Below are positions 14,601 through 46,717 of a stretch of 57,340 nt of DNA, piece by piece. Each line of letters opens with the position of its first letter. Within the stretch, counting starts at the first letter, position 1. A program made the position numbers and the translations under genes. The notes under the pieces were generated by a model, which saw only the letters and a list, made by a program, of their open reading frames with translations, did no database searches and was not told the DNA's origin. Source of the stretch: a virus (Duplodnaviria > Caudoviricetes); the IMG/VR virus record IMGVR_UViG_3300030102_001647, positions 1 through 57,340 of that record. One strand, written 5' to 3'.

Positions 14601-15293
14601 ATGGGAAGAGCAATGATGGGTGCATCAACAAATGTTATGACACCGGAACAAGCAAAGCAAATGAGCATGACAAAGAATGTTAAGCCTCCTGCACTTCAAA
14701 ATGCAATTGACCAAGCAATTTCAACAGGACAGAATGTTCAATATACTCCAGATTTTAGTTCTACGGGTGGGTTAAGTACATCTTTTTCTAAAGCACCTGA
14801 ACCATATGTGCCTGAGTCTGCTAAAGCAGCAGGTGCATTGTATGAGGCAGGTGTAGCACCGTCAATTATTAGAACAATGACTAATGAGTCTTCTTCTTTT
14901 GACCCTGTTGCATACAGGAATCAGTTTAAATCTGACAGCAGTGGGTTGGCTAGTGTTGCTCAACCTACTCCACCACCTCAAGAAGCCGCTACATTTAATC
15001 CTTCACGAGGTAAGGGTGAGTTTTCTCCTAGACAACAGATGCCTAGCTTTTATCAACAACCTATGGGTATGATGGCACAACCTTTTAATCCTATGGGGTA
15101 TGGTCCTATGGGTATGTTTATGAATCCTTATGGTGGATTAGGAGGCATATCTTACAACTTTATGAATAGACAAATGCCTAACTTTAGTATGGGTACTCCA
15201 TTTACTGCAGGTCAATACCAAGCACCAGAACCAATTAAAAATCCAATGGTAAACGCAGCTAGTAGTTTTTTCGGTGGGTTTGGTTTTTACTAA
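14601..15293 (+). CDS. Low-complexity Pro/Gln/Met/Gly-rich hypothetical protein
   Basis: AGGAG RBS; last gene of the plus arm. Confidence 0.6.
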
Positions 15294-16309
15294 ACAGCAT
15301 CAATCATTTCTTGAATCATAGTCTCAAAGGTGTATTTGGGTTTCCATCCAAGCACCTTTTTTGCTTTTGAGGCATCGCCTAATAGTTGGTCAACTTCTGA
15401 TGGTCTGTAAAACTCAGGGTTAATATCTACAACAAGGTTATCGTAGTGGTCATAACCTTTCTCATCAACTCCTTCACCTTCCCAACGTATATTTATAAAG
15501 TCTATCTTTTTAAAACATAGTTCTACTAACTCACGAACAGAGTGCATCTCACCTGTAGCTAATACATAGTCATCGCCATGTTCATGCTGCACCATTTTAT
15601 ACATACCTTCTACATAATCTTTTGCATGTCCCCAATCACGTTGAGCATCTAAGTTACCTAAACTAATCTTATCTTTCTTTCCTGATATAACATCTGCTAC
15701 GCCCTTAACAATCTTTTGTGTAACAAACTCATCACCACGCCAAGGTGACTCGTGGTTAAATAATATACCATTAGAACCATGTAGACCATAGGCTTCACGA
15801 TAATTCCTAACTGTCCAGTAAGAGAACAACTTAGCAACGCCATAAGGTGAGCGAGGATAGAATGGTGTTGTCTCTGTCTGTGGAACTTCTTGTACTTTGC
15901 CGTATAGTTCAGAAGTAGATGCCTGATAGAATCGTGTTGTCTCTAACATGTCTAGTGTACGCATACATTCTAACAGCCTGAGAGTACCAAGACCATCAAC
16001 ATCGGCTGTATATTCTGGTATATCAAACGATACACGGACATGTGACTGTGCGCCTAAGTTATATACCTCGTCAAATTGATAGGTTGCGAACAGCTTCATA
16101 AGACATCCTGTGTCTGTCAAATCACCATAATGTAGGGAAAGGTTAGGATGATTTAGAATATGCTCTATACGCCTCATATTTGCCCCAGCAGAGCGTCTTC
16201 TCAATGCGTGTACATCATATCCCATATCAAGCAAAAGCTCTGCTAGGTAGCCTCCATCTTGTCCTGTGATGCCTGTTACAAATGCAGTCTTATTTGTCTT
16301 TATCTTCAT
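15290..16309 (-). CDS. gmd: GDP-mannose 4,6-dehydratase
   Basis: [36 protein letters not shown] and RDWGHAKDY motifs; start placed at MKIKTNK. Confidence 0.95.
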
Positions 16310-16409
16310 TAATCCATGCCTGTATTTGTTTTCTGAATGAACGTACATCATATAACAGCCAGCATAGAGGTACAAGACACAAAGCTAATAGTATAATTTC
16401 AATCTTCAT
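16290..16409 (-). CDS. 39-aa membrane peptide
   Basis: [39 protein letters not shown] bridges terS and gmd, overlapping both. Confidence 0.45.
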
Positions 16410-16845
16410 CTTCTATTTCCTCGTCTTGAAAATCCTCTGGAAAGGTTTCCATAAGTAGTTCGTAAATCTTTTCTTTTCCGATAACCTGCATTGCTCCTCG
16501 TATCTCTCCTTCAAGAGAATCAATGTCATCTGAGCTTTCATCTTCGGCGTTATTACCCCTAACTCTTGACAATAGTTCAAGTGCTTTAAGCGCAGTCTGC
16601 CCGTGTCCCTGAGACTTGGCTGCCTCATATTGTTTCTCCAGTTCCTCAATGACATCAACGTCCGTAGTAAACTCACCTTCTAACTCCTTAATTCTTTCCT
16701 TGACATCCTCACGTTGTAGTAAGTTGTATCCTTGATTGTAAGCAGAGCGTTCACTGTATCCTGCTGCCTCTGCTGATTTAGTAGCATTACGACTAACAAC
16801 ATAATGCTGACAAAACTTTTCTTGCTTCTCCTTTAACTCTGGCAT
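16399..16845 (-). CDS. terS: Terminase small subunit
   Basis: LKEKQEKFCQHY...NATKSAEAAGYSERSAYNQGYNLL HTH signature. Confidence 0.8.
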   Translation of the reverse strand: MPELKEKQEKFCQHYVVSRNATKSAEAAGYSERSAYNQGYNLLQREDVKERIKELEGEFTTDVDVIEELEKQYEAAKSQGHGQTALKALELLSRVRGNNAEDESSDDIDSLEGEIRGAMQVIGKEKIYELLMETFPEDFQDEEIEDED

Positions 16846-19124
16846 TCTTCCTCCGCAAAAGTTCTATATTTATTTTTGTAGAAAGATTGTTCCCATAGTT
16901 GAGCAACTAAACTGTCTTTACCATAATATCTAATGTTTAATTGTAGTGCGTGTTCTTCCCACATTTTTTCTAAGTCTTGAGCAAGTGCTAATAGTTCACC
17001 AGTTGTAAAGAATTTTTTACCACCTGTTTCTACATGTATATATTTAGGATTACCTGCCTCGTCTTTCAATTCCTTTTGTTCCTCTGTTACATTAGGTATA
17101 CTACAATCAAAACCAAATAGGTGAATATTATGATACCCTAAAGTATCCAGCATTCCTATTGTTCTTGTTGCTGCTGCCGTGCCGCCAGATATTAAAACTG
17201 CTCCGTCTTTTATACCAGACTTTTTATCAATAACTACTTTATCTGTAATTGATTCATCACGAATACCATTTGTAAAAGCATGGAAGCCACGTATCTTATC
17301 TGTCTTACTCATAATGTGACGAGTAACAGAAGGGTCTGTCATTGATGCAATATAGAATACAGTTTCTTCTGGTATTGTTTCAAACAGTTCGGTTCTTTTT
17401 ACACCGTGTGTACTTATACCTTCAATAGGTCTAGGGTCAAGGACAAGACAAGCATCAGGAATAATATCCTTCTCTATAAGTTTAGGAAGTGCGTGTTTAA
17501 CACACCATATTTTTGCATTATACTTTTTCTTTACACGTTTTAAATTTTTAAAATCTATTACACCTCCAGACACAACAGCCACATGTTCGTCTGTAGGTTT
17601 ATATTTTTTTACTAAATCATAGTTACTAATAAGCTCTAGGTTTTCTTTTATATTAGCACGTATGTAATCGCTAGGAACGCAGTCTTTAGGCTTAACAACT
17701 ATTGGAGTTCTAATTAGTTGTTGTGGTAATTCCTTTACTTCTTTTTTAAGCAGCACCGCTAGATGAACATGAGAACCAAAAGCTGTCATGTCGCTAGAAG
17801 GTAAAACATATTTGTTTCTTTCTGTAGCTTCTTCAAATGTTTTAATAATACCTGAGTGTTCCTCTGGAACTTCTTTATCATCATCGTGAAAGCTGTAGTA
17901 ATCATCAAACACAACTATAGGTACTTGTCTAAGATACTTGTAGTCACTAGACACTGTGTCATAAGAATGACCGCCATCAATATATGCAAGGTCTACATCA
18001 TTAAACTGATGTGAGTCCATAGTAATTTTGGTATCGCCTTTGTATAGAGTAAATGTAAATCCCTTGCCGTTCTCTTTCATCTTCTGAGAGAATTCTCTTA
18101 GCCTATTACTAACTGCATTGTATGCGTTATGCTGTTTAATGTTTAACTCAATTCTATCTGTTTCTTCTGTAGCATCTTCAAACAAATCAAAGCCACGATA
18201 ATGTACACTATCTACATTCTCGAAAGCAGCTAGAGCCATTTCAATAGCCCTGCCACCATTCCAAGTTCCTGTCTCAACAATAGAGAAAGAGGACAGTCCT
18301 TCACTGTAACTACGAACTATATCTGCTAGTTGTTTATATCTTTTTGGTCCTTGAATATCTTTAGATACTGTGTCTAACTTAGGCTTATCGTATTTTAAAT
18401 TTCCTTTGTTATGTATAAAGTAATCTTTTAGAGCAGAGTTTTCAAAGACTGCTAGTCCACGAACACCTTCTGATAGGTTGTGTGTTTTAGTTCCATGTGC
18501 TTTGTAAATATTTAACAAGCGTTCAAATACAAAAGAGTCTGTCCATTCACGATAAGCCAACACCTCGTTGGTATCATATGCACCTCTAATATCTACAAGC
18601 ATAGACACTGCGTTGTGCATACCCATATTCCATCCGACAAAACCTGTTTCACTGTAGTCAATATCAATACGTCCAAGGTGAACCACATCACTATCATCTG
18701 GTAATATTTTAGCGGCATCTTCTGCTGTAAATTTTGTAGTTGTAATTGTATCTGCGTCTAACCAAACCAACCAGCTTGAGTATTCTTGGTCTATAAGTTC
18801 GTAGGCTAAGTCTGTATAAGCATATACTTTATGGCAGAATCTTATAGCATCCATTCGATAGTTATAAGGTGCTTCTGCGTAACGCCCATTCTTATCTTTG
18901 TTACGAGTTATAAAATCTTGTCTAGCTTTTAGTTTGTCTAAATCTCTGTATTCAATAAAGCTTGCCTCTGGTACGTCTGGTTTCTCAGAACCAAAGCCAT
19001 CATAATACACAACCAATCTAAAGTCGTCTGGATTCCAGTTATCTACAACTGACTCTAGCATTTGCTTTGCATACAAATCAAAATGCTCTTTGTTAAAAGC
19101 TGTTACAAAAGTATATTTACTCAT
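16833..19124 (-). CDS. Three-domain enzyme: GT-A glycosyltransferase + class I SAM methyltransferase + MAF_flag10/DUF115-like domain
   Basis: WLDAD (DxD) and RFCHKVYA; IVETGTWNG, IDGGHS, VFDDY; VVSGG, LVLDPR, IHLFGFDCS. Confidence 0.7.
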   Translation of the reverse strand: MSKYTFVTAFNKEHFDLYAKQMLESVVDNWNPDDFRLVVYYDGFGSEKPDVPEASFIEYRDLDKLKARQDFITRNKDKNGRYAEAPYNYRMDAIRFCHKVYAYTDLAYELIDQEYSSWLVWLDADTITTTKFTAEDAAKILPDDSDVVHLGRIDIDYSETGFVGWNMGMHNAVSMLVDIRGAYDTNEVLAYREWTDSFVFERLLNIYKAHGTKTHNLSEGVRGLAVFENSALKDYFIHNKGNLKYDKPKLDTVSKDIQGPKRYKQLADIVRSYSEGLSSFSIVETGTWNGGRAIEMALAAFENVDSVHYRGFDLFEDATEETDRIELNIKQHNAYNAVSNRLREFSQKMKENGKGFTFTLYKGDTKITMDSHQFNDVDLAYIDGGHSYDTVSSDYKYLRQVPIVVFDDYYSFHDDDKEVPEEHSGIIKTFEEATERNKYVLPSSDMTAFGSHVHLAVLLKKEVKELPQQLIRTPIVVKPKDCVPSDYIRANIKENLELISNYDLVKKYKPTDEHVAVVSGGVIDFKNLKRVKKKYNAKIWCVKHALPKLIEKDIIPDACLVLDPRPIEGISTHGVKRTELFETIPEETVFYIASMTDPSVTRHIMSKTDKIRGFHAFTNGIRDESITDKVVIDKKSGIKDGAVLISGGTAAATRTIGMLDTLGYHNIHLFGFDCSIPNVTEEQKELKDEAGNPKYIHVETGGKKFFTTGELLALAQDLEKMWEEHALQLNIRYYGKDSLVAQLWEQSFYKNKYRTFAEEECQS

Positions 19125-19891
19125 CCAAGTGACTCCATTAATTTTTCTGTATATATTTTATCTTGGAATAGTTTCCATTCAAAGGAATACTCCTCGTCTA
19201 TTTTTCTTTTAGCTTCCCATTTATCAAACCAAGGACCACCTGTGGTGAAGTGTACGTTCTTTGCTTCTATGTTTGCAGGGCTGTGTCCGTCTAGCCAGTT
19301 CCATTCTTCGTGTATATCGCCTATCTCATCGTCTTGTAGCCAAGACAATCTATGTAACCAACCACCAGACTTTAGGTTAACATCGTCAACAGTAAGCTCT
19401 TTTGTTTTTTCATGGTCACAATTAAATAACATAAAGCTAGACCAGTTCTTTCTATGGTATTGTGTCTGGACAACTCCATCCATCTTCTTACCTACATCAG
19501 GAGTATACTTGTGTTTAACACAAGAGACTGCATACTCTTTCCTGCTACCATACTGGTCAAAGATTTGTTCGATGTCAGCACGTACAAACATATCAGAGTC
19601 CATAAATAATGCAAGACCTGTGTATTGATTTAAAGCAGGTACTAAAAATCTTGTGAATGTAAAGTCAGTGCTGAATGGCTTCCTGTCAAAGTAGTCTATC
19701 TTCTGTCGAGGATTACTCTCATCAACAAAAATAGTTCTACGGAATAGTCCTGCACGACGCAGCGCAGGTTCTATCAGAGGTACGATAGGAAACTTATCGC
19801 AATACTTTCTTATTGAACACATCAAAACCTCGTAAGCCTGATGGTCACGAGGGTCATAACCTATATAGATTGTAGGTTTTTTATTAAACAT
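19121..19891 (-). CDS. Glycosyltransferase (GT-A, GT8-like)
   Basis: IYIGYDPR, STDFTFTRFLVP, FMDSDM, RKNWSS, EWNWL and HFTTGGPW motifs. Confidence 0.85.
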   Translation of the reverse strand: MFNKKPTIYIGYDPRDHQAYEVLMCSIRKYCDKFPIVPLIEPALRRAGLFRRTIFVDESNPRQKIDYFDRKPFSTDFTFTRFLVPALNQYTGLALFMDSDMFVRADIEQIFDQYGSRKEYAVSCVKHKYTPDVGKKMDGVVQTQYHRKNWSSFMLFNCDHEKTKELTVDDVNLKSGGWLHRLSWLQDDEIGDIHEEWNWLDGHSPANIEAKNVHFTTGGPWFDKWEAKRKIDEEYSFEWKLFQDKIYTEKLMESLG

Positions 19892-20054
19892 CGTCAGGTA
19901 AATCTATAGATTCCAAATCTTCTGGTGTCGTTGTTTGTGCTACGCTTTGTATTTTTTTAATAACATCAATAGATACTTTAGCTGGCAACTCTCCCAGACC
20001 TGCTAAAATAACGTTAAGTTCTTCTGTAGTAAATGTTAATGTCCATGTTTTCAT
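19884..20054 (-). CDS. 56-aa hypothetical protein
   Basis: AGGAG RBS; MKTWTLTFTTEELNVILAGLGELPAKVSIDVIKKIQ...; overlaps the GT start. Confidence 0.65.
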   Translation of the reverse strand: MKTWTLTFTTEELNVILAGLGELPAKVSIDVIKKIQSVAQTTTPEDLESIDLPDDV

Positions 20055-20065
20055 TGTGTTCTCCT

Positions 20066-20127
20066 AAAAAAAAATAAAGCGGTAGCTGACCTAGAGAGAG
20101 AGGAAAGGAGGCACAGCCAGCTACCAC
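20066..20127 (-). ncRNA. Candidate small RNA / attenuator hairpin with anti-SD loop and U tail
   Basis: GUGGUAGCUGGCU...GGUCAGCUACCGC stem (wobble pairs work only on the minus strand), loop containing CCUCCUUUCCUCUCUCUCU, followed by UUUAUUUUUUUUU. Confidence 0.6.
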
Positions 20128-20131
20128 AATA

Positions 20132-20160
20132 ATTATACTAAATTTAATTTAGTATGTCAA
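20132..20160 (-). promoter_or_regulatory. Perfect-consensus sigma70 promoter with palindromic spacer
   Basis: TTGACA-17 bp-TATAAT; ATACTAAAT-TAA-ATTTAGTAT inverted repeat spans the spacer. Confidence 0.85.
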
Positions 20161-20348
20161 CCAAAATAATTTTCTATAGTTTTTATTTTCTCATCTGCAG
20201 ACGCAATCTTTTCAATCTCTCCTTCGATAGCCCCAATAATATCAGGGTGTTCTCCGATGCCAACAGATTGGTCTAAGTATACGTTTATGTTTGCTTTGGC
20301 AACAGCAATGTCACCTTCTAGTTTTTTTGTAAGTGCTTCTAGTAACAT
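20157..20348 (-). CDS. Small hypothetical protein
   Basis: AGGAG RBS; 63 aa with VGIGEHPD motif, follows RNR. Confidence 0.7.
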   Translation of the reverse strand: MLLEALTKKLEGDIAVAKANINVYLDQSVGIGEHPDIIGAIEGEIEKIASADEKIKTIENYFG

Positions 20349-20357
20349 GTAATCTCC

Positions 20358-22271
20358 TTAACTATTAATATCCACAACCTCACAAGAGTCACCAGAACAC
20401 GCTAACGTCTGTGACCCTGCTGTGTTATCCTCTACTTCGTAGGACGCAAGCTTTGTCCAATCAATAGACTCAGGCATCTTAGACAAGGCTTCTTTGTATG
20501 TCTCTTCGTTGCAGTCCTGATACGGAGCTTGTGCATAGGTGTGGTCACTGTGTGGTAGAAACGATACGCCTGAACATATATCAAAGTTATCGTATACCCA
20601 AGAGCCTACCTTCAACCACTCTTCATCACGCACAGTAATCGTAACAGATGGTTTGTGTTCACACCAGTTTAGTGCATACGTCTTCCACAACTCAAGCTGT
20701 TCTATAGCACTCATGTCATTACGAGTAACTGCTCCATCAGGTGCTTTAACAGGGAAGCTAAAGACTGTTGTGCTATCTGGCTTCATCACGCAAGCCTCTG
20801 CAGGTATGCCTGAATCAGTTAGGAACTTCGTGAGAGGGTCTTTGTTATCACCTCTGACAGTGCGAATATAATAGTCACTATGACGAGCGTGGATGCCAGA
20901 GGCACTATCAACAAGCTGCGACACAGTGCCACTAGGCTTGACACAGGTGATTGCCGCAGATGGGTTAATTCCAAGACGCTCAGAAGTTTCGCTGTTTGTT
21001 TGTATAGCAACACTTCTAAGCGAGTTAAGAAGTTCTTTCGTAGGTTTAGATGTAATTTCATTATCCATAATACCTGTCAGGCTTACACCCAACAGCCTTT
21101 CTTCTTCGGTATTCTTACGCCACACAGGACGCAAGTAAGGTAAGTGTGTATACGTTGATTGTATTGTACCTAATATGGTAGCAAGTCGTATCTTCTTCGC
21201 TAAAGTTTTTTCTGTGTCTGTTGGTCGGACAACAACCTCAGTAAGATTACAGAACTGATAAGGTCTGAGAATAATCTCAGAGCATGGGTTAGTTCCCCAC
21301 TCCAATCCTGTCTTGCGTCTTTCGTTACGAGCCACATGCTTGTCTGCTGCATCACGGCTGAAGATGCCACGCTCACCAGACTTAGACTCTACGAGAGCAG
21401 TCCACTCACGCAGGAATGTTTCCATGTCAGGCTTTTCTGTGTAGGCTACAGAGTTATTGGCTAACGCACGTTGCTTCTCATTCTCCCACCACTGTCCTGA
21501 CTTAGCGTGGCGCATCCTATCATCAGACAGATTGGACAAACTAATCATAGCACTACGACGCACACCGCCGACAACTACAACCTCACCTATCTTACACATG
21601 ATGTCGTGACACTCTACGCTGTTAAGCTTACGTCCTGCCGCACCCTTGAACTTGGCAACAGTGAAGTTAAACAAATCGTTGAGAGGCTCTGGACCACTGG
21701 CTCTGCCACCAAATGTTTTTAGCCTTGCTCCTGCGGGACGTATCTTAGACAAATCCCACTTAGGTATCTCACCTGTGTATAATAAAGAGACAAGCTTTCG
21801 TAATCCTCTAGCCCATCCTTCTTTACTATCTTGCACTACAATAACATCTTCAACATCTTGTAAGTCCTCCGGCACAAGGGGAAGCTTTTGTATGGACTGT
21901 CTTTCGACAGAGAAGCCTACGCCTGTACCACACAACAGGATGAACATAGCCTCATCGAAAGAGCGAGGGTGGTCTACAGGTAGATAGCTACAGTTGTATA
22001 CACATGTGTTGTCCCTGTCTGACGCTGCACCTGCTGTCATCAATGCTCTCATGCTAGGCATAACCTGTAGCGTGAGGATAGCATCGTGTATATCTTGTTT
22101 GTCTTTCTTATCAATATCAACAAACTCAACGATGTTGTCCATAAATCTTTGGACTGTTTCACTCCATGTTTCTCTGCGTCCTTCTTCTTCCATCCATCGG
22201 GCGTAGCGTGAAGTCGCAATAAAGGTTTGGTAATCTGTTGGCAGGGCGGTGTTCACTGTTTTCTTTTCCAT
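20358..22271 (-). CDS. nrdJ: Class II (adenosylcobalamin-dependent, RTPR-type) ribonucleotide reductase
   Basis: MPSMRAL, GTGVGFS, GTNPCSEI, TCVKPSGTVS and C-terminal ACSGDSCE; no beta-subunit gene present. Confidence 0.92.
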   Translation of the reverse strand: MEKKTVNTALPTDYQTFIATSRYARWMEEEGRRETWSETVQRFMDNIVEFVDIDKKDKQDIHDAILTLQVMPSMRALMTAGAASDRDNTCVYNCSYLPVDHPRSFDEAMFILLCGTGVGFSVERQSIQKLPLVPEDLQDVEDVIVVQDSKEGWARGLRKLVSLLYTGEIPKWDLSKIRPAGARLKTFGGRASGPEPLNDLFNFTVAKFKGAAGRKLNSVECHDIMCKIGEVVVVGGVRRSAMISLSNLSDDRMRHAKSGQWWENEKQRALANNSVAYTEKPDMETFLREWTALVESKSGERGIFSRDAADKHVARNERRKTGLEWGTNPCSEIILRPYQFCNLTEVVVRPTDTEKTLAKKIRLATILGTIQSTYTHLPYLRPVWRKNTEEERLLGVSLTGIMDNEITSKPTKELLNSLRSVAIQTNSETSERLGINPSAAITCVKPSGTVSQLVDSASGIHARHSDYYIRTVRGDNKDPLTKFLTDSGIPAEACVMKPDSTTVFSFPVKAPDGAVTRNDMSAIEQLELWKTYALNWCEHKPSVTITVRDEEWLKVGSWVYDNFDICSGVSFLPHSDHTYAQAPYQDCNEETYKEALSKMPESIDWTKLASYEVEDNTAGSQTLACSGDSCEVVDINS

Positions 22272-24439: not shown

Positions 24440-24892
24440 TTAGAAGGGAACTTCGTCACTAGGTACATGATTAGAGGATGCTTCGGTATAACCTTCTACC
24501 GCATCAAAGTCCTCGCCATAAGATACAAGGTCAACAACCTGAACTTTCTTCAGGATAGGTGTAACACCTGCCTTGCCGTTCATCTCCCAAGAATAAGGAG
24601 AGTACAGAACATTAACAATGCTGCCATTACCAACGAGTTTGTCGGTAGGATTCTTCTGTGCGTCTACAACTATAGGGGCATCATTCTGTGTGCCATCACG
24701 CCTTGCGACACGTTGACGGATGTGGACAAAATCTCCACGCTCGTCGCCTTTGTTCTTGATAGTCAATCCATCAGCTTCAATAGCTGCACGATTGTTGTCA
24801 TCAACACAAATGTCGATTGAGTATTCAGGCTCAAATGATGTGTTAGGGTTCTGGACATGCGCCCAGTATGCTTTACCAGTAATAACTGTCAT
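24440..24892 (-). CDS. Single-stranded DNA-binding protein (T7 gp2.5-like)
   Basis: GKAYWA..., VGNGS.VNV, VQVVDLV, and an acidic tail ending DEVPF. Confidence 0.85.
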   Translation of the reverse strand: MTVITGKAYWAHVQNPNTSFEPEYSIDICVDDNNRAAIEADGLTIKNKGDERGDFVHIRQRVARRDGTQNDAPIVVDAQKNPTDKLVGNGSIVNVLYSPYSWEMNGKAGVTPILKKVQVVDLVSYGEDFDAVEGYTEASSNHVPSDEVPF

Positions 24893-24947
24893 TTCGTTTT
24901 ATCTCCGTTTTGGATTCAATGTTGTCAGCACCATGCCAACAACTACT

Positions 24948-24976
24948 ATAGTAACTCAACTCAAATAATAAGTCAA
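24948..24976 (-). promoter_or_regulatory. sigma70-type promoter for ssb
   Basis: TTGACT-17 bp-TACTAT, followed by a 10-bp leader hairpin (GTTGTTGGCA-TGG-TGCTGACAAC). Confidence 0.6.
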
Positions 24977-24986
24977 GCATTTTTTT

Positions 24987-36798: not shown

Positions 36799-37222
36799 CA
36801 CATATATGAAATTATTTTATAAATCATTGTATTTATTAAATAATATATGTAGATAGGGGGTATACTGTCTGTTTTATAAACAGGGGGTGATGTTGCATTT
36901 AAGACACACAAAGTGTGAATGTTGTAATTTCATCACATATTCTATGTGTTATATTCGCAACACTTATCAAATCACTGTAAAAACTGTTGTAATTTTGTCA
37001 CTAAAAAGTATTCTTTCCCATTTTCTTCAGAAAATCTGTGACACATATGACACATACCCGCACACAAAAACGTACGAGCATACATATATATAAAATACCC
37101 CTGCCATATATTGAGTAAATTTAGGAGCTTTCTCACAAAGTATATTTCTAAAGTAGTTCTACATTTAAAAACTGTAATACGGGGTGTTAGTAGCGGAATA
37201 AAATTAGGAGCTTTCTCACAAT

Positions 37223-37431: not shown

Positions 37432-38964
37432 ATGCAAGACAGTGACATTCTTACTACACATGTAAATTTCAACAATACACTTAATAGATATATACAGAAG
37501 AAAGCTAAACAAGACTTCTTAACTTACGTTAGACTTGTAGCCCCAACTCTTGTAACAGACTTCAAGATGGGTAGACACATAGAGTTATTGTGTGATAGAC
37601 TACAGAAGGTAGCAGAGGGTAACTTAAAAAGGTTAATGATATTCTTGCCACCCCGTTCTAGTAAATCTTTAATAACAAGTAAACTATTTCCATCATGGTA
37701 TATAGGACACTTTAGTAATCACGAGATTATGTCTATCTCACACAGTGACCAATTAGCTAGTGACTTTGGGCGTAGTGTTAGGGATATAGTTAATGATGAA
37801 CAGTTTCAACGTATCTTCAAGGGTGTGTCTCTACGAAGTGATGTGAAGGCTGCAGGTAAATGGAAGACTAACCACAATGGTTCTTACTATGCTGCAGGTG
37901 TTAGGTCACAGATTGCTGGTCGTGGTGCGCACCTAGCATTACTAGATGATGTTATGTCTGAGGAAGATTCATTCTCAGAAGCAGGACGTAGATATATCAA
38001 AGAGTGGTGGCCTAGTGGTTTACGTACACGCTTAATGCCTAATGGTTCTATTATTATTATTAACACAAGATACCACTATGATGATTTGTGTGGTTGGTTA
38101 TTAAAACAAGAAAACGAATTAACAGAAAACAAATGGGAAGTAATTAGTATACCAGCATGGCTTGACGAGACAGCTGCAGACCTGTTAGGTTTAGAAGAAG
38201 GTAGTAGTTATTTTCCTGAGTGGAAACCAGATGAGGTATTAAAAACAGATGAACAAGAAATACGGGCTAGTAATGGGTCTAGGTATTGGGACGCTTTGTA
38301 CATGCAAAATCCGTCACCAGATGAAGGTGGGATTATCAAGAAGACGTGGTTTGAGTGGTGGGAGTATGAAGACCCACCGCAATGCGAGCTTGTTATCCAG
38401 ACTTATGACACAGCCTTCTCGACGAGGAAGACAGCAGACTATAGTGTCATCCAAACGTGGGGCATCTTTCACCAAGTCGAAGAAGACGAATACGGATACG
38501 AAAGCATCGTACCAAACCTCATTCTTCTTGGGAATGTCAAAGACCGCTTCGAGTATCCTGACCTTCGCAGAACGGCGCAGGTTCTCTACCAGAAACATAA
38601 GCCAGATATCTGCATTATTGAGAAGAAAGCTTCTGGTCAATCGTTGCTACAAGATATGCGCAAAGCAGGACTACCTGTTCTGGACTACCTGCCGGATAGA
38701 GACAAAGTATCGCGTGTCTATGCCGCTACGCCTATTATGGAGTCGGGCCGCTTATATATCCCGAAAGGAAAAGAATGGGCGAAGGATTTATTCGACGAGT
38801 GTTTGGCCTTTCCGAATGGCGCACATGATGACCAAGTAGATGCAATGACTATGGCAATACACTATATGAAGGATAGTTGGAATGTAACACACCCTGAAGA
38901 CCCTAGCTGGGAAGATGATTATAATCCTCGTAGACAAAAGAGGGTTGGATACTGGAGGACTTAG
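37432..38964 (+). CDS. terL: Terminase large subunit
   Basis: PPRSSKS Walker A, GRGAHLALLDD, NTRYHYDDL, YDTAFS, IEKKASG and FPNGAHDDQVDA. Confidence 0.95.
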   Translation: MQDSDILTTHVNFNNTLNRYIQKKAKQDFLTYVRLVAPTLVTDFKMGRHIELLCDRLQKVAEGNLKRLMIFLPPRSSKSLITSKLFPSWYIGHFSNHEIMSISHSDQLASDFGRSVRDIVNDEQFQRIFKGVSLRSDVKAAGKWKTNHNGSYYAAGVRSQIAGRGAHLALLDDVMSEEDSFSEAGRRYIKEWWPSGLRTRLMPNGSIIIINTRYHYDDLCGWLLKQENELTENKWEVISIPAWLDETAADLLGLEEGSSYFPEWKPDEVLKTDEQEIRASNGSRYWDALYMQNPSPDEGGIIKKTWFEWWEYEDPPQCELVIQTYDTAFSTRKTADYSVIQTWGIFHQVEEDEYGYESIVPNLILLGNVKDRFEYPDLRRTAQVLYQKHKPDICIIEKKASGQSLLQDMRKAGLPVLDYLPDRDKVSRVYAATPIMESGRLYIPKGKEWAKDLFDECLAFPNGAHDDQVDAMTMAIHYMKDSWNVTHPEDPSWEDDYNPRRQKRVGYWRT

Positions 38965-45703: not shown

Positions 45704-46648
45704 ATGGCTATAAATAGAGCATCTATTGCTAAAGAGCTTCTCCCCGGTCTTAATGCCGTATTCGGTCTTGAGTATGGGGAAGTCTCTGATGAACACGCTC
45801 CACTGTTTGAAACTGAGAACAGTGACCGTGCTTTCGAGGAAGAGGTTCTTTTCACTGGCTTCGGTACTGCACCTGTAAAAGGTGAAGGTGCTGCTGTTTC
45901 TTACGACGACGCTTCTGAAAGCTTTACATCTCGTTACACACACGAGACTATTGCTCTTGGATTTGCTGTCACAGAAGAAGCTATGGAAGATAATCTTTAT
46001 GACACATTCGCCAAGTTACGTGCCAAAGGTTTGGCTCGTGCAATGGCTAACACAAAACAAGTTAAAGCTGCTGACGTATTTAACAACGGTTTTAACTCAA
46101 GCTTTGCTGGTGGTGATGGACAACCGTTCTTCTCCAACGCACACCCGACTATTGGGGATGGCAACCAAAGTAACTTGCTTACTGCTGCTGACCTGTCGGA
46201 AGCTTCGCTGGAAACTGCTCTTATCAGCATTTCCAAAATCAAAGATGACCGTGGTATCTTAATTGGCGCACAAGCCGAAAGCCTCCACATTCCATCTGAC
46301 TTGGCGTTTGTTGCTGACCAAGTTCTAAACAGCACAATGTCAACAACTATTGGGGTTAACCCAACAACTGCAGCTAATGGTGCAACAAATGTAAACGATA
46401 TTAACTCTATCAGAAACCAAGGACTTATTCCCGGTGGTTTCTTTGTGAACCGTCGCTTTACAGATACAAACGCATTCTTCATCAAAACTGATGTTCCGAA
46501 TGGCGCAAAAATGTTTGTACGTTCACCATTGCAAACCAAAATGGAACCAGATTTCGATACAGGAAACCTTCGCTTTAAAGCTCGTGAGCGTTATAGCTTT
46601 GGCTTCTCTGATTGGAGAGGTTACTTTGGTAATGCTGGTTCTTCCTAA
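45704..46648 (+). CDS. Major capsid protein
   Basis: MAINRASIAKELLPGLNAVFGLEY...SDRAFEE...DFDTGNLRFKARERYSFG; followed by a strong terminator. Confidence 0.9.
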   Translation: MAINRASIAKELLPGLNAVFGLEYGEVSDEHAPLFETENSDRAFEEEVLFTGFGTAPVKGEGAAVSYDDASESFTSRYTHETIALGFAVTEEAMEDNLYDTFAKLRAKGLARAMANTKQVKAADVFNNGFNSSFAGGDGQPFFSNAHPTIGDGNQSNLLTAADLSEASLETALISISKIKDDRGILIGAQAESLHIPSDLAFVADQVLNSTMSTTIGVNPTTAANGATNVNDINSIRNQGLIPGGFFVNRRFTDTNAFFIKTDVPNGAKMFVRSPLQTKMEPDFDTGNLRFKARERYSFGFSDWRGYFGNAGSS

Positions 46649-46685: not shown

Positions 46686-46717
46686 GGGGAAAGGTCGTTG
46701 TATCTTTCCCCTTTTTT
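46686..46717 (+). terminator. Intrinsic terminator after MCP
   Basis: GGGGAAAGGT/ATCTTTCCCC stem followed by TTTTTT. Confidence 0.85.

Follow-up and report, generated by a model that had tools for sequence, protein, structure and literature searches.

The viral record IMGVR_UViG_3300030102_001647 (Duplodnaviria; Caudoviricetes) comprises 57,340 nucleotides (nt), which are termed the window in the following. The record is 98% complete and contains two divergent blocks of genes (Table 1). We describe a compact element on the minus strand, which heads the last operon of the leftward transcription block. Read from 20160 to 20052, it consists of a promoter, four bases, a hairpin, a U-run, a Shine-Dalgarno (SD) sequence and an ATG, in that order, and the TGA stop codon of the preceding 63-amino-acid (aa) open reading frame (ORF) falls within its -35 hexamer. 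Comparison with related phages shows that the conserved unit comprises the promoter, a 5'-terminal hairpin with a pyrimidine loop, a short linker and the SD sequence and start codon of an operon that includes a glycosyltransferase gene.

Table 1. The element and its genomic surroundings in the window
Feature	Position	Strand	Remarks
-35 hexamer TTGACA	20160-20155	minus	sequence
spacer, 17 nt, AT-rich	between TTGACA and TATAAT	minus	sequence
-10 hexamer TATAAT	20137-20132	minus	sequence; followed by tatt before the stem
predicted transcription start, G	20125	minus	7th nt after the -10 hexamer, inside the stem base; from promoter geometry
stem, 5' arm GTGGTAGCTGGCT	20127-20115	minus	13 nt
loop GTGCCTCCTTTCCTCTCTCTCTA / GUGCCUCCUUUCCUCUCUCUCUA	20114-20092	minus	23 nt, 87% pyrimidine
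stem, 3' arm GGTCAGCTACCGC	20091-20079	minus	13 nt
U-rich linker/tail TTTATTTTTTTTT / UUUAUUUUUUUUU	20078-20066	minus	13 nt; terminator-like in the window's variant
Shine-Dalgarno AGGAG	20065-20061	minus	first ORF of the operon
ATG of the 56-aa ORF	20054-20052	minus	first ORF of the operon
56-aa ORF, no assigned function	19884-20054	minus	first gene after the leader in the window's variant
glycosyltransferase	19121-19891	minus	operon
methyltransferase and MptE-like protein	16833-19124	minus	operon
small terminase subunit	16399-16845	minus	operon
GDP-mannose 4,6-dehydratase	15290-16375	minus	operon
63-aa phrog_1811 protein	20157-20348	minus	upstream of the element
ribonucleotide reductase (RNR), class II-like	20358-22271	minus	upstream of the element
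small early ORFs, primase-helicase, DNA polymerase, Cas4-like nuclease, DUF3310 protein	leftward block	minus	before the element
large terminase, portal, virion genes	rightward block	plus	large terminase at 37432-38964

The element lies 3.2 kb upstream of the small terminase gene, which for its part is embedded in a cluster of sugar-modification genes; the large terminase gene is about 20 kb away and is encoded on the other strand. The ORFs scanned include none recognised as a phage RNA polymerase, and a Pfam search of 40 ORFs yielded matches for 11, none of them to an antiterminator, a sigma factor or an RNA-binding family; the 29 ORFs without a match may include novel proteins. The phage's own genes use GGAG SD sequences. 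Judged by the DNA polymerase, the nearest cultured phages are the Pelagibacter phages HTVC103P, HTVC104P and HTVC115P (46-47% identity), and a megablast search with positions 19000-21500 found no match among cultured phage records. Metagenomic genomes distantly related to the HTVC103P-type group are termed “group IV” in the section of PMC8528129 that treats them, where their G+C content is given as 31.9-44.4% and their hosts as unknown. The G+C content of the window (about 33-44%) fits such “group IV”-like genomes.

The distribution of the element was followed in two sets of IMG/VR loci. Among 80 loci fetched via the reductase (RNR-anchored set), 33 contain a homologue of the glycosyltransferase gene, and in each of these 33 a perfect promoter and a hairpin with a C/T-rich loop are found upstream of that gene, with zero to two small genes in between. 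A covariance model of the hairpin, R1, found nothing in the 47 RNR loci without a glycosyltransferase match, a weak negative since several of these loci end soon after RNR. In a second set of 80 loci, anchored on the glycosyltransferase gene and not independent of the first, as the two share contigs, R1 matches the coding strand upstream of the gene in 60 cases. Of the 20 loci lacking the hairpin, 14 carry a promoter of the form TTGAC-N17-19-TAnnnT and a short unstructured leader directly before the gene, and the other six possess neither hairpin nor promoter. Since these hairpin-less and more distant relatives retain the promoter, the latter serves the operon, to which the hairpin has been added as a leader module. 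The loci in question (L400, L402, L404, L405 and L406, where the site is found about 100 nt upstream of the glycosyltransferase match, as well as L395-L397, L403, L408-L410, L412 and L413) have a consensus or near-consensus promoter behind a run of A residues (AAAAAAAGATTGACA...TATAAT) and an unstructured leader of about 30 nt, and represent natural hairpin-less controls.

The element is present once in the window and once in each of five related records, four of which are at least 90% complete. The variants are referred to here by type, the window's own being type A. Depending on the type, the first gene after the leader is the 56-aa ORF, an unrelated 61-aa ORF, another gene or the glycosyltransferase gene itself, and where some relatives harbour extra genes between the 63-aa gene and the element, the element remains with the glycosyltransferase operon. 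The carriers are contigs of uncultured marine podophages, in which the element consistently stands at the head of an operon for glycosyltransferase, methyltransferase and small terminase.

Pattern searches extended this collection. A first scan retrieved the window's own type and four unrelated chance matches (L087, L088, L089 and L094), and a second scan, for the promoter together with CTCTCTC, returned at least 120 stretches and added types D3, E and F among the matches listed. Of its matches, 114 in new loci were examined; 36 of these passed a loose threshold of at least 8 bp in the stem, most of them spuriously. R1 was then run on 100 new loci (L098-L197, with L198-L210 left out) and at E values up to 1 gave 20 matches, namely 14 family sites on the coding strand, five echoes of such sites on the opposite strand and a match in L170 (E = 0.35). 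In one unrelated viral contig (L172:12949-13042), TTGACA-N17-TATAAT precedes a hairpin of 11 bp whose 8-nt loop reads CUCUCUCC; AAAGGAGG and the start codon ATG of an ORF of 73 aa come next. R1 has no match there, and the arrangement could be either an analogue of the element or an accident of the pattern searched for. A different promoter-like site (TTGACA-N17-TAGAAT or TAAAAT and a 9-bp hairpin) lies about 1.3 kb upstream of the reductase match in L013, L014, L015, L019, L023 and other loci; its sequence is unrelated to that of the element studied here.

The promoter is the most constant part of the unit. An earlier reading of the window, based on the bare sequence and called the sequence-only reading below, had proposed TTGACA-N17-TATAAT on the minus strand with a stem a few nt further on, and exactly this is found, the interval being four bases. 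The perfect arrangement TTGACA-N16-18-TATAAT occurs once in the 57,340 bases (mean of 0.08 in shuffled sequences, with one or more copies in 8 of 100 shuffles), and across four promoter scans the score of 12/12 for a sigma-70 promoter was unique to 20160-20132, the next best sites scoring 11/12. In all 15 distinct relatives the hexamers TTGAC[A/T] and TATAAT and their 17-nt spacing are unchanged, while the letters of the spacer vary. Eleven of the 15 have a G as the seventh nt after the -10 hexamer; in ten relatives (types A, A', C and D) this G occupies register position 2 of the stem, and in type F it is a stem base located further out. Because this seventh base is the G at the stem base in 11 of 15 relatives, the RNA is predicted to start paired. 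Between the predicted start at about 20125 and the last base of the U-run at 20066 lie about 60 nt, in agreement with the length given by the sequence-only reading.

On the minus strand the region reaches -21.2 kcal/mol (z = -2.63; 2 of 200 shuffles as good) by folding into a stem of 13 bp that closes a loop of 23 nt, and on the plus strand the fold reaches no more than -13.9 kcal/mol (z = -0.89; 34 of 200 shuffles as good). The stem of the window's hairpin (20127-20079) holds three G-U pairs, which function on the minus strand alone, as the plus-strand fold is far weaker; the fold energies of both strands thereby bear out the earlier claim of a stem of about 13 bp with wobble pairs valid on this strand only. 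In the window, R1 has a single match, the hairpin at 20079-20127 (minus strand, 51.4 bits).

Covariation was assessed on 15 distinct hairpins, which were trimmed in register and aligned with MAFFT in disregard of structure. The counts rest on two alignments (A2 and A4); a whole-leader alignment (A1), in which the 3' arms are misaligned, and a model-fitted one (A3), which includes two reverse-strand matches, were left out. In the MAFFT alignment of 15 sequences, the 13 stem pairs are formed in 95.4% of 194 cells, and both sides have changed at eight stem pairs (26 cells). None of 500 shuffles reaches these values, although kinship alone can beat shuffles in the absence of any structure. When the 3' partner was slid by one to three columns as a control, the paired cells fell to 27-65%, and an alignment of 12 sequences left the covariation picture unchanged. 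One stem position is represented by U-A, C-G and U-G pairs, another by G-C, A-U, U-A and G-U, and within type C a compensatory change from C-G to U-A is found in L411. The drop in pairing in the slid controls and the many independent pair types indicate a real constraint on the stem. The constraint is strand-specific: G-U pairs are kept at two stem positions across relatives, where the opposite strand would have C-A mismatches, and at shared sites R1 scores 62-73 bits on the coding strand versus 19-26 bits on the opposite strand. The hairpin is an RNA structure under selection on the minus strand, and the search in related phages for a covarying stem with a conserved CU loop, which had been suggested as a check, turned out positive for both parts.

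The loop is conserved as well. The pyrimidine string CCTCCTTTCCTCTCTCTCT, which the sequence-only reading had placed in the loop, is present at 20093-20111, and the loop carries CCUCCUUUC, nine letters in common with the 3' tail of 16S rRNA, as well as a (CU)5 run. Among the 15 distinct sequences the loops measure 21-30 nt and consist of 76-90% pyrimidines; a (CU)n run of 7-10 nt is found in all of them and CCUCC in 11, being absent from types B, B2, C and F. Most loops retain (A)CCUCCUU(UCU), with letters as in the 16S rRNA 3' tail, and the 5' half of the loop equals the stem in conservation. A mere stabiliser would call for neither the size nor the conservation of this loop. Its CU-rich, anti-SD-like character persists while the letters of the stem change. 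A conserved stem with a drifting loop had been named as the mark of an ordinary terminator of the RNR operon; the relatives display the opposite pattern, and since the loop is conserved while the stem letters change, the element is not an ordinary terminator.

In most bacteria the 3' tail of 16S rRNA has these letters. In types A' and D the loop contains ACCUCCUUUCU, which is identical to the final 11 letters of the 16S-end motif in the marine alphaproteobacteria checked. The motif GGATCACCTCCTTTCT matched at least 120 genome contigs, and its position was verified at three loci (a SAR116 metagenome-assembled genome (MAG), an Amylibacter MAG and an uncultured alphaproteobacterium), where it starts 13 nt ahead of the final base covered by the Rfam small subunit rRNA match and ends 2 nt beyond that base. 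Given this position at 16S ends, the loop copies the whole anti-SD tail and not just its CCUCC core. Identity with the 16S tail is equally expected from selection for pairing with SD sequences, and alone is no proof of ribosome mimicry aimed at some other reader.

Downstream of the stem, GGAG follows after 3-15 nt, and then an ATG, in all 15 distinct sequences; in type E the linker amounts to 2 nt, followed by AGGAGG. The U-content of the linker is far less constant. Within the first eight nt after the stem, types A, A' and D have six U residues, types D2 and F and the type D sequence of L039 have five, types B, B2, C and D3 have three and type E has two, such that five of the 15 distinct sequences have three or fewer. 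A terminator-like tail is confined to types A and F. The U-rich tail described by the sequence-only reading therefore exists in the window's variant and does not hold as a conserved trait of the 15 relatives. The two clear intrinsic terminators of the window, at 46686-46711 (plus strand) and 37257-37228 (minus strand), have loops of 6 nt as against 21-30 nt in this hairpin family, and a terminator scan allowing loops of 3-8 nt does not call the hairpin at 20079-20127. Among the features of an intrinsic terminator, the GC-rich stem is present; the loop is not short, the U-tract is not conserved and the site does not stand at the end of a transcription unit.

Expression was assessed from Logan contigs, which show neither RNA ends nor starts nor strand. 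A 281-nt contig from one metatranscriptome library (depth 155), derived from an L011-like relative, covers the equivalent of 20069-20144 and 204 nt of the next ORF and in this way spans the hairpin, the U-run and the ORF together. In another library (run X15) a 151-nt contig covers 20069-20219 and spans the promoter; it is of read length and so constitutes no proof of a 3' end. These contigs weakly suggest that RNA reads through the hairpin site. A discrete small RNA (sRNA) of about 60 nt, which the sequence-only reading had predicted, does not emerge as the conserved product of the element: the tail is not conserved, GGAG and ATG follow in 15 of 15 sequences, hairpin-less relatives keep the promoter and an RNA-library contig bridges the site.

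Taken together, we consider it somewhat probable that the element constitutes a cis-acting, 5'-terminal leader hairpin of the glycosyltransferase operon mRNA. The start site, the stabilising effect, the partner of the loop and the partial termination invoked below are all inferred. Host sigma-70 RNA polymerase would initiate at about G20125, and the transcript would begin inside the base of a 12-13-bp hairpin that serves as the 5' leader of the operon mRNA and is followed by a short A/U-rich linker, the SD sequence and the start codon. Owing to its paired 5' end, the mRNA might be shielded from 5'-end-dependent decay of the RppH/RNase E type, and the loop, large, unstructured and rich in pyrimidines with the letters of the anti-SD tail, could provide a single-stranded platform that tunes translation, either by docking the 30S subunit or S1 in the manner of a standby site or by pairing with SD-like purine tracts. 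In the window's variant, the 13-nt U-run would in addition render the hairpin a leaky intrinsic terminator, and an RNA of about 55-60 nt is probably made there, as a by-product or attenuation product, while the remainder of the transcripts would read on. The leader reading implies that one and the same transcript runs into an SD sequence and an ORF, and GGAG and ATG indeed lie downstream in every distinct sequence; the bridging contig points the same way, with DNA carry-over being possible. Leaders of this general kind are known from Escherichia coli ompA and from gene 10 of phage T7, where 5'-terminal stem-loops act as stabilisers and expression leaders.

Several observations weigh against this interpretation. 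A plain 5' stabiliser needs no conserved loop of 21-30 nt, and for this reason part of the function is left unexplained. The best pairing of the loop with its own start region is predicted at -6.4 to -10.9 kcal/mol, a level also attained by segments drawn at random from the locus, of which a fraction of 0.11-0.58 pair equally well with the loop in ten variants. A pseudoknot in cis between loop and SD sequence thus has no specific support, the duplex energies being at chance level, and the 2-nt linker of type E makes such a pseudoknot across a 14-bp helix sterically implausible. The RNA-library contigs, which reveal neither transcript ends nor strand, may reflect DNA carry-over. In the window's type the stem together with UUUAUUUUUUUUU forms a respectable terminator, and a stable short RNA could be the main product. 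Finally, use of the promoter and the involvement of decay enzymes are assumed from what holds for bacteria in general.

As the loop exceeds the needs of a mere stabiliser, a role in trans as an anti-SD RNA, or a polymerase-directed or attenuating role, is conceivable. The former would entail that the hairpin is released as an RNA of about 50-60 nt, either because transcription terminates at the U-run (types A and F) or because the A/U-rich linker is cut by an RNase E-type enzyme (the other types), and that its loop, as a copy of the 16S anti-SD tail, pairs with the SD sequences of host or phage mRNAs and there blocks the 30S subunit or competes with it. CcsR and AbcR sRNAs act through C/U-rich anti-SD motifs exposed in loops, and by analogy the frequency of CCUCC (11 of 15 loops) and the universal (CU)n run, the conservation of the 5' half of the loop on a par with the stem, the use of the genome's strongest promoter and the good U-run in the window's type would all suit such a mode of action. 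A candidate target is GAGAGGAAAG at 20372-20381 (minus strand) by the reductase ATG, a perfect 10-nt complement of CUUUCCUCUC in the window's loop. However, relatives possess comparable purine-rich SD sequences that show no clear co-variation with the loop, and the complement is a low-complexity purine/pyrimidine match to a generic SD sequence, which weakens and does not track the changes of the loop in types B and D, and the 19-nt loop string has no extended target within the phage genome at up to three mismatches. The U-tail is not conserved, SD sequence and ATG always follow, the promoter is retained for the operon in hairpin-less relatives, and the RNA-library contig bridges into the next ORF. 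Moreover, types B, C and F have lost CCUCC, the element matches no sRNA family of Rfam, and since the phage's own genes use GGAG, a global competitor for SD sequences would also strike phage mRNAs. We regard an anti-SD sRNA as rather unlikely.

A related and rather improbable idea is that the hairpin represents a phage-made mimic of the 16S rRNA 3' tail, a free “anti-SD” that is either released or attached to the leader. Such a mimic could compete with ribosomes for SD sequences and re-rank the translation of mRNAs during infection, or it could act as a decoy for a host factor, or for a nuclease, by which the 16S tail is recognised. If true, a 16S-tail mimic would represent a novel class of RNA for takeover or counter-defence, present in phage groups that rank among the most abundant in the ocean.

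In a further scenario, the hairpin would be a promoter-proximal attenuator or antitermination RNA that times the expression of the glycosylation and small terminase genes, similar to lambda PR'-tR' “6S” or HK022 put. At lambda PR'-tR', transcription from a strong promoter stops early and reads through only once a phage factor has modified RNA polymerase, while HK022 put RNA acts on the very polymerase that made it. A consensus promoter, a stable hairpin immediately thereafter and a late-type gene (small terminase) downstream fit this pattern, as does the U-run in types A and F, and the conserved loop could contact a protein or the polymerase. Yet, most variants lack a terminator tail, and hence there is nothing to antiterminate at the site; large loops are poorly suited for intrinsic termination; and the Pfam scan of 40 ORFs revealed no antiterminator, sigma factor or RNA-binding family, with novel proteins being possible. 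An attenuator thus has little probability.

Two further explanations have next to none. An ordinary intrinsic terminator of the RNR operon with an unrelated promoter adjoining, as could be suspected from the GC-rich stem and U-run downstream of RNR and the 63-aa gene, is contradicted by the comparative data and was rejected: the promoter precedes the hairpin, so each transcript from it carries the hairpin, the tail is not conserved, the 21-30-nt loop has a conserved sequence, the hairpin stands at a fixed distance to the -10 hexamer, and the element remains tied to the glycosyltransferase operon even where genes are inserted after the 63-aa gene. Equally implausible is a site acting at the DNA level, such as a pac or replication-origin element in which an inverted repeat is combined with a polypurine/polypyrimidine tract in the vicinity of the small terminase gene, for although a single copy per genome, the distance of 3.2 kb and the adjacent strong promoter would be in keeping with it, the G-U pairs kept at two positions (C-A on the other strand), the strongly asymmetric R1 scores and the fixed register to the -10 hexamer and the SD sequence are not.

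Other sites of the window resemble single parts of the element. At 24893-24986 on the minus strand, a second sigma-70-like promoter (TTGACT-N17-TACTAT, 9/12) stands a few bases ahead of a hairpin (10 bp, 3-nt loop), after which come GGAG and the start codon ATG of ORF 24440-24892. A promoter followed by a 5' hairpin may be a general design in this phage, realised at 24893-24986 in a version that lacks the large loop. The plus-strand site at 46686-46711 is a canonical terminator (10-bp stem, 6-nt loop, T6) located right after ORF 45704-46648, with a TATAAT-containing stretch behind it, and can serve as a yardstick for terminators of this phage. The intergenic stretch of 338 nt that precedes the large terminase gene holds a 26-nt direct repeat (37113-37138 and 37196-37221, plus strand, 92% identical), which contains TTAGGAGCTTTCTCACAA and overlaps the strong terminator-like hairpin of the minus strand at 37257-37228 (12-bp stem, 6-nt loop and T-run).

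The element represents a well-supported structured RNA motif that is absent from Rfam and occurs once per genome in an uncultured lineage of marine podophages. Within about 100 nt, a host-type promoter of the greatest possible strength is joined to a 5'-terminal hairpin whose loop reproduces the anti-SD tail of the ribosome. Interpreted as a leader, it offers a testable model of how phages lacking an RNA polymerase of their own might boost or gate a late operon devoted to virion or host glycosylation and the small terminase. Should the loop target SD sequences or factors binding the 16S tail, it would constitute a new route of translational takeover; otherwise, the element would provide a useful natural part for expression leaders and a marker for the phage lineage.

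Known RNA families and leaders share individual traits with the element. A search of the window against Rfam yielded no family at gathering score, and around the site at E values up to 10 the matches were at chance level only (Alpha_RBS, 17.6 bits; freshwater-2, 16.8 bits); searches with four other variants returned nothing relevant, and a literature search of open-access texts, supplements excluded, found no description of the motif. The same searches (window, site at E up to 10, four variants) gave no covariance-model match to CcsR/cuckoo or AbcR, the families that the sequence-only reading had brought into play. CcsR/cuckoo RNAs are alphaproteobacterial anti-SD sRNAs with CCUCCUCCC loops, and AbcR RNAs likewise are anti-SD sRNAs. 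The phage element has in common with them a C/U-rich anti-SD motif in a hairpin loop, but consists of a single hairpin rather than two or a tandem, is encoded by a phage, is followed by SD sequence and ATG and has a terminator tail in some variants only.

With lambda PR'-tR' “6S”, and with Rho-independent terminators in general, the window's variant shares the GC-rich stem and U-run near a strong promoter and a late-type gene downstream, whereas its loop of 23 nt, the lack of a U-run in most relatives and the fact that no antiterminator gene was recognised set it apart. The alpha operon ribosome binding site (RF00140), a pseudoknot operator bound by S4, has a similar layout with a hairpin of about 10 bp, a loop of about 30 nt, a linker, AGGAG and a start codon. 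The match of 17.6 bits (gathering score 38; E = 0.026 in a 151-nt search; none in four other variants) reflects similar architecture only, as pairing between the element's loop and downstream sequence is at chance level and the operon does not encode ribosomal proteins.

The PeSL cassettes of T4-type phages are described in PMC4122927 as composites of terminators and promoters that occur serially within hyperplastic regions and bring about the shuffling of genes there. They resemble the element in that a stem-loop and a promoter of the sigma-70 type are closely combined in the genome of a phage, but the element studied here is single-copy, has a large conserved loop and is tied to one operon. 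The tisB mRNA is presented in the pertinent part of PMC6690012 as having an S1-dependent ribosome standby site. A structured 5' region and a single-stranded stretch upstream of the ribosome binding site are common to tisB and the phage element; in tisB the binding site is sequestered and about 100 nt off, whereas the phage SD sequence appears open and lies 3-15 nt from the stem, and a role of S1 in the phage is hypothetical.

The ompA and T7 gene 10 leaders, finally, parallel the phage element in their overall plan. In these leaders and in the element alike, a strong promoter is combined with a start (predicted, for the phage) in a stable hairpin with few or no unpaired nt at the 5' end, and the hairpin gives way to an A/U-rich linker, an SD sequence and a start codon. 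Unlike the small loops of ompA and T7 gene 10, which have no conserved sequence, the phage hairpin displays a conserved pyrimidine loop of 21-30 nt.

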